Source of the DNA: Minisyncoccota bacterium
Lineage (GTDB): Bacteria; Patescibacteriota; Minisyncoccia; Phycocordibacterales; UBA12079
Assembly (NCBI GenBank): GCA_023140255.1
Contig: JAGLLX010000001.1
Location: 27,861-91,860, forward strand
Reading direction: 5' to 3'
Length of the DNA stretch: 64,000 nucleotides
A model generated the notes under the pieces. It was not told the DNA's origin. It was given only the letters and a program-made list of their open reading frames with translations, and ran no database searches. The number at the start of each line of letters is the position of its first letter. The first letter of the stretch is position 1. This document shows positions 7,640-63,376 of the stretch, one piece after another. Made by a program: the position numbers and the translations under genes.

Positions 7640-7711
7640 GTCCTCGTAGTTCAATGGATAGAATATAACTTTGCGGAAGTTAGGACGTAGGTTCGATTCC
7701 TACCGAGGGCA
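7640..7711 (+). tRNA. tRNA-Arg (anticodon GCG)
   Basis: GTCCTCGTAGTTCAATGGATAGAAT... ; anticodon stem TAACT/AGTTA, loop TTGCGGA gives G34C35G36; backbone nearly identical to the TCT isoacceptor. Confidence 0.7.
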
Positions 7712-7775
7712 CAAATTTAAAAAACCCCTAGTTAAATTACTACTAGGAGTTCTTCTCTTAAGAACAAGTTTTTTG

Positions 7776-58700: not shown

Positions 58701-59594
58701 ATGAAAGGTTTAAAACAATTAAAAAATGAGTTTCTGGAATATCTAGAGATTGAAAAAGGGCGAAGTCTTAAAACTGTTGAGAATTATGATCGCTACTTAA
58801 GTCGTTTTTTGGGTTATCTAGAATCAGACTTCCCTTCTGCTATTACTGATGAAAAAATGAGAAAGTATCGTTTATGGTTAAATCGTCAACCAACTGGAAA
58901 TAATTCAGAAACATTAAAAAAGAGAACTCAGAATTATTATTTAATCGCTTTACGAGGTTTTTTAAAATATTTAGTCAAAAGAGAAATAAAATCTTTTGCT
59001 CCAGAAAAAATAGAACTAGCTAAAGTCGGAGAAAGGTCTTTAGATTTAATTTCGGCAGAAGAATTAAAAAGATTATTAAATATATCAAAAGGAAAAGATT
59101 TAAAAGATTTAAGAGACAAAGCTATTTTAGAATTACTCTATTCTACAGGATTAAGAGTTTCAGAATTATGTGCTTTAAATTCTGATATTGATTTAAGAAA
59201 AGATGAAATGTCAGTTCGCGGAAAAGGAGATAAGGTACGAGTGGTTTTCTTTTCTCATTCAGCCAAAAAAGCAATTAAAGAATATCTTGATGCAAGAAAA
59301 GATATGGACGAAGCTTTGTTTACTTCATTGAGTAAAGATAAAGCTAGTCGTTTAACTACAAGGTCTGTGGAGAGATTAGTTAAACAATTAGCCATTAAAG
59401 CTGGGATTACAAAGAAGGTTACTCCCCATATTATTAGGCATTCCTTCGCTACTGACTTGTTAGAGAATGGGGCTGATTTAAGATCAGTGCAAATGATGTT
59501 GGGTCATTCTGATATCTCTACTACTCAAATTTATACCCATATGACAGATAAACATTTAAAAGATATACATAAAAAATTTCATAATAAGAAATAA
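58701..59594 (+). CDS. xerC: Tyrosine recombinase XerC/XerD family
   Basis: N-terminal SAM-like domain; catalytic R..HxxR..Y (HIIRHSFAT ... TQIYTH). Confidence 0.85.
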   Translation: MKGLKQLKNEFLEYLEIEKGRSLKTVENYDRYLSRFLGYLESDFPSAITDEKMRKYRLWLNRQPTGNNSETLKKRTQNYYLIALRGFLKYLVKREIKSFAPEKIELAKVGERSLDLISAEELKRLLNISKGKDLKDLRDKAILELLYSTGLRVSELCALNSDIDLRKDEMSVRGKGDKVRVVFFSHSAKKAIKEYLDARKDMDEALFTSLSKDKASRLTTRSVERLVKQLAIKAGITKKVTPHIIRHSFATDLLENGADLRSVQMMLGHSDISTTQIYTHMTDKHLKDIHKKFHNKK

Positions 59595-59655: not shown

Positions 59656-59955
59656 ATGATATATTCTAAAATTCCATGTGTCTATATACTTACAAATAAG
59701 AAAGATGGGGTCTTGTATACTGGAGTAACTAGTAATTTAGAAAAAAGAATTTTTGAACATAAAAATAAATTAGTTTCTGGTTTTAGTAAAAAATATAATT
59801 TACATATTTTAGTTTATTACGAACAAGGGGAAGATATGACAAGTGTTATTTATAGAGAAAAACAAATTAAATCTGGTTCAAGAGAAAAAAAGATCAAGTT
59901 AATTATAAAGATAAACCCAGAATGGAAAGATTTATCAAAAAACTTATTTATTTAG
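59656..59955 (+). CDS. GIY-YIG nuclease superfamily protein (UPF0213-like)
   Basis: CVYILTNKKDGVLYTGVTSNLEKRIFEHK. Confidence 0.8.
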   Translation: MIYSKIPCVYILTNKKDGVLYTGVTSNLEKRIFEHKNKLVSGFSKKYNLHILVYYEQGEDMTSVIYREKQIKSGSREKKIKLIIKINPEWKDLSKNLFI

Positions 59956-60304: not shown

Positions 60305-61780
60305 TTATTTAACATGATGTTTGTCTCTAATTTCCTTCAACTCTTTTTCTTCTTGAGCGGTTTTCTTTTCTATGCCTTTTTGACTTAATTGTATTAATTC
60401 TTTTTCTGATAATTTTATAAGTTCAAGAGTCTTTGTTTCTAGATATTCTTCGGTGTTTAGTTTAGGGTTATCTAAGACTTCTTCCATTAAAGCATTTAAA
60501 ACTAAGCCTATTTTAGGTCCTGGTTTTTCATTTATTATCTCCATAATACGATTCCCGTTTATTTTAAGCATTTTTACAGAAACAGGGTCTTTCATAGCTT
60601 CTTCTATCATAGCCATGTATTTTCTTAGTCTATAAGGCTTTTCTTTAGGTACACCCATTCCTATTCTATCGCAAGTTCTTAATTTCATTAAATCCCATAC
60701 GTTTTCAGGTCCTACATTAGCTATAATTCGTCTTACAGCTGATAAAGTAATCTGATCAATATCTGAAAAGAATAAGTGATTTCTTACTAATTTAGGAACA
60801 ACGTCTATTATTTTTCCAGAAAACTTTAATCTTTTTAATATTTCACGAGAAACTCTTTCGCCCACTACATCATGTCCGTAAAAAGTCCACTCCTTTTTTT
60901 CTTTATGCCATCTTTTTGTGTGTGGCTTGGCTATATCATGTAATAAAGCGGATAAACGAAGGTGTAAGGGCATTTCTTTGTCTGCTGAGTGCTGCAAGGT
61001 TCTTAAGTTGTGCTCCCAAATAGTATAAATATGGGCTCCTTTTTGTTTTTCATCCATTCCCATCTCTAATTCAGGCATAATATATTTCAAAAGTCCTAGT
61101 TTTTGGCTTAAAATAACACCGTCCATAGGGTTTTTAGACATTATAATCTTTGTAAATTCATCTCTAATTCTTTCTTGAGAGATATTTTCTAGGTTATTAG
61201 AAAATTTGATAATAGATTTTTGGGTTTCAATTTCTATTGAAAAATCTAATTCAGTAGCAAAACGCACAGCTCGTAGTATTCTTAAGGTATCTTCATTAAA
61301 TCTATCTTCAGAATTCCCTACTGTTTTTATGATTTTGTCTTTTAAGTCTTTTTGTCCGTTATATAAATCAACCAATGTTTCAGATGAAACATTATAAGCT
61401 ATCGCATTTATAGTAAAATCACGTCTTTTCAAGTCATCTTCTAGTTTATCGCTAAAAATAACAGTATCTGGGTGTCTTTCGTCAGAATAAGCACTTTCTA
61501 AACGATATGGGGTTACTTCTATTGTTTTGAGTGTTTCGTCTAATGTTTCATCTGAAACAATTCCTACTGTTCCAAAGGGGTTTTCATAAAAAGTATGCTC
61601 AAAAAGCTCTTGAATTTCTTCTGGTTTTGCATTTGTAGTAACATCCCAATCTTTCGGGGTTCTTTCTAAAAGAAGATCCCTCACACAACCACCAACTAAA
61701 TAAGCCTCGAAACCAGCTTTTTCGAGAGTTAATGTTACATGTGTAACTTCTTTTGGGATTTTTGTTTGTATATTTTCCAT
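60305..61780 (-). CDS. cca: CCA-adding tRNA nucleotidyltransferase / poly(A) polymerase family with HD domain
   Basis: GGCVRDLLL...DWD head motif; HD domain (LHDIAKP). Confidence 0.8.
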   Translation of the reverse strand: MENIQTKIPKEVTHVTLTLEKAGFEAYLVGGCVRDLLLERTPKDWDVTTNAKPEEIQELFEHTFYENPFGTVGIVSDETLDETLKTIEVTPYRLESAYSDERHPDTVIFSDKLEDDLKRRDFTINAIAYNVSSETLVDLYNGQKDLKDKIIKTVGNSEDRFNEDTLRILRAVRFATELDFSIEIETQKSIIKFSNNLENISQERIRDEFTKIIMSKNPMDGVILSQKLGLLKYIMPELEMGMDEKQKGAHIYTIWEHNLRTLQHSADKEMPLHLRLSALLHDIAKPHTKRWHKEKKEWTFYGHDVVGERVSREILKRLKFSGKIIDVVPKLVRNHLFFSDIDQITLSAVRRIIANVGPENVWDLMKLRTCDRIGMGVPKEKPYRLRKYMAMIEEAMKDPVSVKMLKINGNRIMEIINEKPGPKIGLVLNALMEEVLDNPKLNTEEYLETKTLELIKLSEKELIQLSQKGIEKKTAQEEKELKEIRDKHHVK

Positions 61781-61812
61781 AATATTAATGTTTCAGATGA
61801 AACTTTTTTGTG

Positions 61813-61833
61813 TAAATTTGTGTCCCCGGCAGT
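61813..61833. repeat. Displaced copy of tRNA-Arg(TCG) 3' end plus flank (att-like direct repeat)
   Basis: TAAATTTGTGTCCCCGGCAG identical to 62021..62040. Confidence 0.5.
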
Positions 61834-62027
61834 TCGGTCACAGGTTTCTAAATGAAATATTTCGCTATGGCTCATATTTCATTAAGAACCTTCGACCCCG
61901 TCTCATTATCGTTCCGTTTCTTTCGCTATCGCTCAGGAATACTCACGATATGCTCTGATTTTCGAATCCTGACGAAAGCAAAGAGATTTGCTTTCTCCGG
62001 AAACACAAATTTACTCCATAAATTTGT

Positions 62028-62099
62028 GTCCCCGGCAGGATTCGAACCCGCAATAACGGTTCCGAAGACCGTTGTGATATCCATTTCACCACAGGGACA
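62028..62099 (-). tRNA. tRNA-Arg (anticodon TCG)
   Basis: GTCCCTGTGGTGAAATGGATATCAC... ; anticodon loop CTTCGGA; T-loop TTCGAAT. Confidence 0.75.
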
Positions 62100-62197
62100 T
62101 ATAAGTATATATTATACACTATTACCTTTTAAAACAAAGTTTTGTGTTTTTATTTAAATATGATAAAATAGTCATTGTTATATAAAATAAAAGTTCC

Positions 62198-62268
62198 GCG
62201 GGTATAGTTTAGTGGTAGAACAACTGCCTTCCAAGCAGTAAACGAGAGTTCGATTCTCTCTACCCGCA
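62198..62268 (+). tRNA. tRNA-Gly (anticodon TCC)
   Basis: GCGGGTATAGTTTAGTGGTAGAAC... ; anticodon loop CTTCCAA. Confidence 0.85.
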
Positions 62269-62321
62269 CAAAATACTTAAAAATACCCAGAAAGATACAT
62301 AGTATTTTCGCAAGGTATTTT

Positions 62322-62389
62322 TAGTGGTAGAACAACTGCCTTCCAAGCAGTAAACGAGAGTTCGATTCTCTCTACCCGCACAAAATACA
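62322..62389 (+). repeat. 5'-truncated duplicate of tRNA-Gly(TCC) (positions about 13-73 + 3' flank)
   Basis: 68-bp identity to 62210..62277, including downstream CAAAATAC. Confidence 0.6.
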
Positions 62390-62402
62390 AAAAACAAAAA
62401 AC

Positions 62403-62434
62403 AAAAAACAAGGCATTTGCCTTGTTTTTTGTTT
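62403..62434 (+). terminator. Hairpin terminator preceded by (AAAAACA)3
   Basis: AAAAAACAAGGC-ATTT-GCCTTGTTTTTT. Confidence 0.55.
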
Positions 62435-62914
62435 AAATAATGTTTCATCTGAAACATTTAAGAACTTTAGCTGTGTATAATTGTGGATAAAACAGTGGAT
62501 AAAATGATAACTTGACCTTTAAAATTTTAGTGTTTTTTATAAGATATTTGTCTTTTTTAGATTAAATATGGTTTGATTAAAGGGTTTATATAAAAGTCTT
62601 GTAAAAAGGACAGATAATTTAAAATGTAAAAAATTGTAAAATAATGCTTTATAAACAAAAAATAATCTATCTTTAGTTATTAAAGAAAAGTTACTAAAAA
62701 TCTTAAAATTGTTTATATTTATGATTTATTTGCATTAAATAAAGATATGTTACTAAGTAACATAGTGCTACTATATAATAAATTTAAGAAATAAATATAA
62801 AAGCAGTGCTTGGAGTGCTGATTTGTAGATTAGTGCTCTTCTCAAAGTCATTAGATCATTTATTATTTAAATTATATTTTATTAGATATTTTAATATTGG
62901 TGTATAATTAAAAT

Positions 62915-63376
62915 ATGACCAAAACTTACAAAAGAAAAATAGGAGATTATGGTGAAGAATTAGCTTCTAAATTTTTAAAAAGAAAAGGTTTAAAAATTCA
63001 AGATAGAAATTATTTAAAAAAATGGGGTGAAATAGATATCATAGCTGTTAAGAAAAAAGGGTTTTTATGGCGAGAAATAGAGAAATTACATTTTATAGAA
63101 GTAAAAACAGTTTCATGTGAAACTAGACAGGGAACTAATAAAGAAATAATAGATGATTATTTACTAAGTGATAATATCCATGGTTGGAAATTACAACGAT
63201 TAAAAAGAGTTTTTCAGACATATTTAAGAGATGAAGATGTTTCAGATGAAACAAATTGGCAATTTGATATAATAATCGTCTTTATAAATCTAAAGGACAT
63301 TTCTATAAAGGACACAAATAAGCAGTATTCAGGTAAAAATTATTATATTGAGTATATAGAAGATGTTATTGTTTAA
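62915..63376 (+). CDS. YraN-family (UPF0102) endonuclease-fold protein
   Basis: GDYGEELASKFLKRKGLKI ... EIDIIAV ... FIEVKT motifs. Confidence 0.7.
   Translation: MTKTYKRKIGDYGEELASKFLKRKGLKIQDRNYLKKWGEIDIIAVKKKGFLWREIEKLHFIEVKTVSCETRQGTNKEIIDDYLLSDNIHGWKLQRLKRVFQTYLRDEDVSDETNWQFDIIIVFINLKDISIKDTNKQYSGKNYYIEYIEDVIV

Follow-up and report, generated by a model that had tools for sequence, protein, structure and literature searches.

A folded non-coding module behind tRNA genes of Patescibacteria carries direct and inverted copies of the tRNA 3' end

Why should a bacterial tRNA gene be followed by a second copy of its own 3' end? The question is raised by a 64,000-nucleotide stretch of contig JAGLLX010000001.1 of a Minisyncoccota bacterium (hereafter the window), in which tRNA-Arg(TCG) and tRNA-Gly(TCC) are each repeated in part. 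The original prediction took both duplications for scars of integrase-mediated insertion, left by elements since excised or decayed. We find instead that the DNA within the Arg repeat belongs to a widespread and apparently undescribed kind of small folded non-coding element located behind tRNA genes of Patescibacteria. The reading we favour, with a probability of about 0.5, is that both duplications stem from this one family and that the family is a selfish, non-autonomous element mobilised in trans, whose working part would be a folded helix made of two copies of the tRNA end.

A repeat search of the window identifies TAAATTTGTGTCCCCGGCAG as an exact 20-nt direct repeat at 61813-61832 and 62019-62038, with zero matches expected by chance for such a 20-mer. 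The repeat predicted at 61813..61833 and 62021..62040 is real, with slightly different boundaries. It spans the final 12 nt of tRNA-Arg(TCG) and 8 nt of its trailer. Elsewhere in the 64 kb, tRNA-Arg(GCG) alone gives a near-match, at its 3' end and with 3 mismatches. There, at window positions 7700-7719, it has the same CAAATTTA trailer as tRNA-Arg(TCG), and the trailer appears common to the Arg tRNA genes of this genome. Between the repeats lie 186 nt with 40-46% G+C, as against 18-33% in the flanks, containing the GAGCGATAGCGAA and GAGCCATAGCGAA motifs, in agreement with the predicted 185 bp or so of GC-richer DNA.

Taken as a complete copy, the Arg element occupies 61813-62018 on the minus strand. 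The sense strand of the insert folds at -74.1 kcal/mol (z = -6.85) into a multi-branched rod, closed by pairing between S, the direct copy of the tRNA 3' part, and S', an inverted copy of it; the opposite strand folds 11 kcal/mol weaker. Two long hairpins of the insert centre on the words CGGGGTCG and TGTGACCGAA. A covariance model, R1, built from 29 short copies of the family, matches the window at 61826-61975 (minus strand) over its full length (model positions 1-94) with 29.3 bits and E = 9e-6, or 17.8 bits and E = 0.005 with filters off. Members of the R1 family are defined here by a full-length match at most 400 nt behind a co-oriented tRNA, ending in that tRNA's 3' part; the window match lies directly behind tRNA-Arg, and its 20-nt S copy is exact. 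The Arg insert is a diverged full-length family member and not decayed DNA. In its P2 hairpin the family consensus GAAAG-NC-GGAG is degraded to GAAAA-UC-AGAG, and its downstream S has lost 2 nt of the T-loop, with native flank next.

By its CCA-enzyme gene the window belongs to Patescibacteria, near Paceibacterota/Campbellbacteria. Homologous inserts are found behind tRNA-Arg(TCG) in the loci L001, L002, L003, L005, L008, L041, L046, L055 and L016 (loci are given by L numbers). Each of them ends in the 3' end of its own tRNA, despite acceptor and T-stem sequences that vary between lineages, and in L052 the same core stands behind tRNA-Pro and ends in the tRNA-Pro 3' end. The original prediction had proposed looking for empty sites in relatives, and such sites exist, with a downstream flank or terminator as in the window. 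In L004 the tRNA-Arg is directly followed by the flank that stands after the second S in the window (CAAATTTACA, then a parS-like palindrome); in L003 the tRNA-Gly is empty, and the terminator directly after it is the one found behind the second Gly copy of the window. A look-up of identical CCA enzymes returned L280 and L281, which have the arrangement of the window, and L282, which keeps tRNA-Arg and module. In L282 (1-180), from another sample, nothing upstream of tRNA-Arg resembles the window, and the change, which falls precisely at the 5' end of the tRNA, is due either to a break in synteny or to a chimeric assembly; at the start of L281, likewise a contig of another sample, the sequence terminates inside the tRNA-Gly repeat.

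Metagenome contigs were scanned with an exact pattern, two core words plus CGAWTCY, which gave at least 120 loci; the counts concern the matches listed, among which L194, L197 and L204 were confirmed by inspection as chance matches in GC-rich coding DNA. Of the 122 listed matches, 80 have a tRNA on the same strand 60-300 nt upstream, and at least 29 anticodons are represented. The repeat starts across the family at T-loop C56, S being identical to tRNA positions 56-73 in 46 of 78 listed cases, and bases past the search pattern, left unspecified by the scan, copy the upstream tRNA. The common layout is an intact tRNA, a short hairpin, S' (an inverted copy of the last 20-30 nt of the tRNA), a three-way-junction core, S and the native flank, in a non-coding element of about 90-200 nt. 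Pairing between S' and S reproduces the acceptor/T-stem helix. Positions with a wobble or mismatch in the tRNA itself are informative: there S' shows the Watson-Crick complement of S in 33 cases and a likeness to the tRNA 5' strand in 4; S' is therefore an inverted copy and not a relic of the tRNA 5' half.

With R1, further copies were found in these loci, among them tandem pairs and as many as five copies on a single 12-kb contig (L244); 17 loci hold two or more. Wherever a tRNA stands within 400 nt upstream of an R1 hit, the two have the same orientation (86/86). The P1.1 hairpin type of the window copy (Table 1) recurs in L003, L055 and many metagenome copies. Two or more other core types with the S-S'-core-S layout escape R1 (L001, L005, L012, L200), and the family is broader than the CGGGGTCG/TGTGACCGA type; these other cores (GAGCCGCG... 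and others) are located at L001 208-380, behind tRNA-Arg in L005, at L012 1646-1947 and in the middle copy of L200. No Rfam 15 family overlaps the module in the window (E up to 10), L041, L052, L008 or L011, the best hit being Pab19 with 15.5 bits against a threshold of 55, and no description of the element was found in the literature searched. A palindrome of about 20 nt, CCTGCCTRCYGGCAGGCAGG, stands at differing places inside modules (L008 3100-3125 and 2180-2205; L271; L279) and is perhaps another inserted repeat of still smaller size.

The core is a three-way junction of P1 (S'/S), P2 and P3. P2 has a 3-bp base (G-N-C / G-N-C), whose N pair occurs as C-G, A-U, G-C and U-A, and above it a GGA bulge and a G.A pair, resembling a kink-turn (K-turn); P3 (GUCGCGG/CUGUGAC), which together with J2/3 is the best-conserved part of the core, contains two G.U pairs and one bulged A. 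Covariation in the seed alignment is 0.391, compared to 0.168 for shuffled and at most 0.127 for slid controls, and in the model-fitted alignment of 112 hits it is 0.436, compared to 0.153 for shuffled sequences. The best-conserved G.U pair is G.U in 105 of 110 sequences. The sense strand folds better in every module (106/106), by 12.3 kcal/mol on average, and G.U outnumbers A.C oppositions in P3 (200:10), P2 (47:11) and P1 (95:63). Sense-strand folding together with the excess of G.U therefore indicates that selection acts on a single-stranded form of the tRNA sense strand. This form could be RNA or lagging-strand template DNA, the latter because tRNA genes are normally co-directional with replication.

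Mobility of the element is favoured by several observations besides the empty sites and the multiple copies per contig. The distribution of the family is patchy, and the occupied tRNA differs from genome to genome. On L244 the copies behind two different Ser tRNAs have identical cores, and among core pairs at least 85% identical, 15 lie at different tRNAs and 5 at the same tRNA. Decay is visible as well, as loss of the core in the L004 Gly copy, truncation of several S copies and mutations of the window copy at consensus positions. Over 90% of the copies are free of cargo. About 5.5 kb lie between the tRNA and an intact module in L178 (2437-7873), where they encode a type III restriction-modification pair (Mod and Res), and in L189 (430-5900), where they encode a large serine recombinase and a Schlafen/AlbA_2 (Schlafen-like) ATPase; a tandem arrangement with a second, degenerate module is also present in L178. 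The two window segments (186 nt and 43 nt) are too short for a gene and contain neither a recombinase nor cargo of kilobase size.

The tRNA-Gly duplication is exact, as predicted, although its length is 69 nt and not 68, and its distance from the tRNA 51 nt and not 53; the copied segment is 62208-62276. The second copy scores 42.8 bits as an Rfam tRNA (gathering score 29; aligned 62310-62380), with non-standard pairs and indels in the acceptor and D stems; ARAGORN calls no tRNA there, and the cloverleaf is incomplete. The 43-nt spacer aligns to the region of the post-tRNA hairpin (P0) behind tRNA-Gly in L004 with a score of 26, equalled by 1 of 300 shuffles. In L002, whose tRNA sequence is identical, and in L008 and L055, tRNA-Gly carries a full module, and in L004 a coreless S-S'-S remnant, the S' of which (TAGCGGGTAGGGAGAA) resembles the tRNA D-arm (TAGTGGTAGAACAA), the place where the Gly copy of the window starts. 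The simplest reading, to which we give even odds, is that gene conversion from the neighbouring tRNA has overwritten a former module and so produced the pseudo-copy; the conversion would be bounded on the left by the S'/D-arm microhomology and on the right by S.

How would such an element spread? Under the reading that we favour, it would enter at the conserved T-loop box of a tRNA gene with the topology of integrase-type integration, the partners being the tRNA gene and a circular or folded element that carries S', core, S and trailer. The element would provide a replacement tRNA 3' end, often with a terminator, and the displaced original 3' end would become the downstream repeat. The observed order, tRNA 1-55, S, trailer/hairpin, optional cargo, S', core, S and native flank, is the one expected from a T-loop crossover, and it is also exactly the one expected from single-strand hairpin integration of the integron attC or CTX-phage type. 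The folded module itself would be the persisting and spreading unit, mobilised in trans, and the S'/S helix would serve as its attachment site or tRNA mimic while single-stranded, be it in read-through RNA or in DNA of the lagging-strand template.

A more specific version, which we put forward tentatively and at less than even odds, is that these are a new class of tRNA-parasitic structured elements of the Candidate Phyla Radiation (CPR). A three-way junction clamped between inverted and direct tRNA 3' copies would here mimic a minihelix, and its single-stranded form would be processed by the tRNA-maturation or replication machinery, so that the element could spread without an enzyme of its own. 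The RNA might be trimmed, even circularised, at tRNA processing sites, or lagging-strand DNA might serve as a folded attachment site.

Several observations weigh against the selfish-element reading. No XerC-like gene occurs in the 735 kb of module loci (at least 120 loci), and no recombinase, transposase or reverse transcriptase is consistently near the modules; large serine recombinases are present in only 4 module loci, at inconsistent positions, and the commonest neighbouring protein family, a housekeeping one, is found in 9 of 117 loci. No excised or circular form of the module has been seen, and no pair of filled and empty sites among near-identical strains. A T-loop crossover onto a different tRNA should give a chimeric tRNA, which is not observed, and a target-matched S' that flanks an element-borne hairpin is hard to make in one insertion step. 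The module has been kept behind tRNA-Arg(TCG) across 63% CCA-enzyme identity with S tracking the tRNA, which fits selection or gene conversion. In 39 of 88 cases the hairpin that separates tRNA and module is terminator-like, and co-transcription of the two is therefore not assured. The metagenome set was picked by a pattern that holds the best-conserved core words, and the 112-sequence alignment had been fitted to the R1 model.

That the module has been kept behind tRNA-Arg(TCG) in the window as well as in L041 and L016 is in line with a serious rival, which we nevertheless judge unlikely: that the module is a structured RNA beneficial to the host. It would be transcribed with the tRNA or by read-through from it; with its closing helix that mimics a minihelix, it would be trimmed by RNase Z, RNase P or the CCA-adding enzyme and would serve as tRNA-end decoy, regulator or protein scaffold; gene conversion or selection would keep the repeat identical to the tRNA, and patchiness would result from loss by recombination between repeats. 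The strict co-orientation with tRNAs and the unanimous sense-strand folding described above fit this explanation, as do the conserved G.U pairs and the K-turn-like loop, which are features of protein-binding RNAs, and an S copy that includes the trailer would supply the 3' processing signal of the tRNA. However, close relatives have an empty site and several copies are decaying, a different tRNA is occupied in each genome, some contigs hold several copies and near-identical cores stand at different tRNAs. In addition, S' removes tRNA identity features such as G3.U70, and a terminator-like hairpin often precedes the module.

The ordering of the parts, on the other hand, fits in every copy what would be produced by a folded single-strand attachment site of the integron attC or CTX-phage attP type, an explanation we regard as quite improbable. 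S' and S would rebuild the target duplex of the tRNA gene, a host recombinase would exchange one strand and replication would resolve the product, leaving tRNA, cargo if any, S', core and S; the strand would be the lagging-strand template or transferred single-stranded DNA. The hairpin is indeed specific to one strand (106/106), which for co-directional tRNA genes would be the lagging-strand template, and the S'/S stem corresponds to the 3' segment of the tRNA gene. Copies with cargo and tandem arrays (L178, L189, L200, L184) are consistent with such a site, and GCGAAGC-type loops, which are unusually stable as DNA mini-hairpins, are common. Yet more than nine-tenths of the copies lack cargo, no integron-type or other tyrosine recombinase is linked to them, a conserved three-way junction with invariant G.U pairs is unusual among known folded attachment sites, and the 5' half of the tRNA T-stem, expected in a symmetric core site, lies outside the helix.

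That the duplications are ordinary attL/attR scars of larger integrase elements (prophages or islands), imprecisely excised or decayed, is largely refuted and in our view very improbable. Direct repeats of tRNA 3' parts that begin in the T-loop are reportedly the classic product of integrase-mediated insertion. In line with this, direct repeats of the tRNA 3' part with the intact tRNA at one end are seen here, relatives show empty sites with the same flank (L004, L003), and two related loci hold kilobase cargo, one of them including a serine recombinase; the original prediction was right to tie the repeats to DNA inserted at tRNA 3' ends. Flanking tRNA fragments have been described for elements of 9-23 kb (PMC9897764). 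What lies between the repeats, though, is no random residue of such an element but a conserved, covarying, strand-specific module common to at least 120 loci. Unrelated prophages cannot all have decayed to one and the same core sequence, such scars do not include an inverted copy like S', and no integrase is found inside. The prediction had itself regarded the same arrangement in distant relatives, without mobile DNA, as incompatible with scars; the module stands behind many tRNAs in distant relatives and in recombinase-free surroundings, which speaks against the classic attL/attR interpretation.

The prediction was correct about the XerC-like gene (58701-59594) and about a GIY-YIG gene next to it (59656-59955), but a connection with the repeats is not borne out. 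XerC is syntenic with cca in relatives with or without the module and, as judged from this synteny, is a housekeeping neighbour; association of GIY-YIG genes with modules is not consistent. Free-standing open reading frames (ORFs) of LAGLIDADG-like and GIY-YIG type (about 95 aa) do recur beside module-bearing tRNA genes, in 7, 3 and 4 of 117 loci (L176, L168, L206, L212, L250, L191 and L046; window 59656-59955), too rarely for an association. Both XerC and GIY-YIG were consequently rejected as mobilisers, the former being syntenic regardless of the module and GIY-YIG/LAGLIDADG ORFs being present in only 3-7 of 117 loci.

It is hardly credible that the arrangement is a functionless by-product of replication, in which fold-back template switching at the T-loop TTCGAA and the terminator hairpin would yield a direct-inverted-direct triplication and, for Gly, a simple tandem duplication: the palindrome TTCGAA does mark both core junctions exactly, the L004 Gly copy is a coreless S-S'-S and S' exactly complements S, trailer included, but coreless structures are rare, the conserved covarying core and the spread to at least 29 tRNA types are left unaccounted for, and the Gly copies are no clean tandem, since 69 nt are repeated around 43 unique nt and the spacer is homologous to a module hairpin.

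The element can be placed among known kinds, tRNA-targeting insertions and small structured repeats, although the chance that it forms a separate class is substantial. With the attL/attR sites of tRNA-integrating prophages and islands it shares the intact tRNA upstream, the displaced copy downstream that starts in the T-loop, the native flank, the empty sites and occasional cargo in between; it differs in lacking an integrase, in its usual size of 90-200 nt, in its conserved folded core with an inverted copy of the tRNA end and in its occurrence at no fewer than 29 tRNA types. Integron attC and CTX attP sites are likewise one-strand imperfect inverted repeats with a stem that reproduces the target duplex, placed at the distal end of the unit and found in tandem arrays, whereas the module targets a tRNA gene, is not known to depend on IntI or Xer, consists mostly of empty units and has a conserved three-way junction in place of variable sequence.

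Miniature inverted-repeat transposable elements (MITEs), repetitive extragenic palindromes and their mosaics (REP/BIME), Correia elements and Rickettsia palindromic elements are also short, non-coding, multi-copy, strongly folding and patchy, and the dispersed copies of the module (up to 5 per 12-kb contig) resemble them. However, the arms of the module copy the local target, with an inverted arm that complements the local tRNA end (33:4) and a repeat of variable length (about 8-55 nt) instead of a fixed target duplication; there is no autonomous parent, and location and orientation relative to the tRNA are strict. Like mascRNA, the bacterial YrlA/Y RNA and the tRNA-like domain of transfer-messenger RNA (tmRNA), the module has an acceptor/T-stem-like helix with a tRNA 3' strand and trailer, by analogy with which cutting by RNase Z or RNase P and CCA addition would be possible; unlike them, it lacks a T-loop, D-arm and elbow, its 5' strand is a plain complement without identity elements and it has no Rfam match. 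The omega-RNAs of TnpB/IscB at the ends of IS200/IS605 elements are similarly a structured scaffold at the element end with host flank directly after, but no TnpB or IscB gene is present here, and the flank-derived segment of the module is paired within the fold and not a free guide.

Other identities were considered and rejected. GGATTCGAA and the tRNA-like 3' end had suggested tmRNA, two-piece tmRNA or Y RNA; ARAGORN and Rfam returned nothing, and GGATTCGAA is the T-loop complement. A degenerate tRNA duplicate with a T-loop insertion is contradicted by S', which follows the complement of S (33:4) and complements the trailer too. Hammerhead, box C/D and H/ACA RNAs, suggested by GAUGAG/GAAAG, do not fit the junction order and give insignificant scores. 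A loose form of the pattern had 99 viral hits, of which those inspected were chance matches in GC-rich coding DNA, and a viral origin was dismissed; BLAST against cultured phages and plasmids gave no match to the module. Finally, a leader or regulator of cca is ruled out, as the module stands upstream of cca only in the lineage of the window and elsewhere in other contexts behind tRNAs.

If the family is what it seems, Patescibacteria carry an abundant, uncatalogued structured element that copies a tRNA end both ways round a conserved core, a new exploitation of tRNA genes. Fragments of tRNAs and pseudo-tRNAs in CPR genomes need not signal prophage scars. The repeats also bear on genome plasticity and assembly, as in the contig end within the tRNA-Gly repeat and the loss of synteny at the tRNA-Arg 5' end. 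The family is a candidate for a new RNA motif with a K-turn-like loop or for a new folded attachment site, and allows testing how a non-coding element retargets to about 30 tRNAs.

Table 1 Annotated features of the two tRNA loci, with window coordinates and the basis of each assignment.
Feature	Coordinates	Strand	Basis
tRNA-Arg(TCG), intact; its 3' part from T-loop C56 is what the element copies	62027..62098	-	ARAGORN; Rfam tRNA 62.9 bits
S_left, direct repeat copy 1: last 12 nt of tRNA-Arg and 8-nt trailer	62019..62038	-	exact 20-nt repeat
5-nt loop between S_left and S'ext+S'a	62014-62018	-	fold
S'ext+S'a: inverted copy of trailer and acceptor 3' strand; either S copy is a possible partner	61997..62013	-	inverted repeats, fold
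P1.1: 23-nt element-borne hairpin dividing acceptor complement from T-stem complement	61974..61996	-	fold
S'b (GTCAGGATTCGAA): inverted copy of T-stem 3' strand and half of the T-loop	61961..61973	-	inverted repeat, 13/14 complementary to tRNA
J1/2 + P2: long hairpin with GAGCGATAGCGAA loops	61901..61960	-	fold, family comparison
J2/3 + P3: CGGGGTCGAAGG ... CCTGTGAC; G.U pairs and bulged A	61837..61900	-	family comparison
S_right: second direct copy of tRNA 3' part (CGAA--CTGCCGGGGACA and trailer CAAATTTA)	61813..61836	-	repeat; comparison with the L004 empty site
tRNA-Gly(TCC), intact	62198..62268	+	ARAGORN; Rfam 77.9 bits
43-nt spacer, probably what is left of a former module's post-tRNA hairpin (P0)	62277..62319	+	alignment to the L004 P0 region
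Pseudo-tRNA: exact 69-nt copy of tRNA-Gly positions 11-71 and 8-nt trailer	62320..62388	+	repeat search
Native intrinsic terminator of tRNA-Gly	62399..62434	+	inverted repeat; comparison with L003

Beside these features, a probable chromosomal replication origin lies at 62440-62900 of the window. Three DnaA-box-like 9-mers are grouped within 31 bp (62472-62502), the stretch 62500-62900 is very AT-rich (14-25% G+C) and the local GC skew, negative before about 62.4 kb, is positive after it. The same DnaA-box cluster is found behind tRNA-Gly in L005, L055, L206 and L010.

The palindrome GTTTCANNTGAAAC is present in six exact copies within 1.9 kb (window 61377-63252) and nowhere else in the 64 kb, with 0.34 copies expected. 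It resembles parS, the ParB site; some copies lie within the coding sequences of cca and of a UPF0102 protein, and one lies just upstream of the cca start. Similar sites flank tRNAs in relatives.

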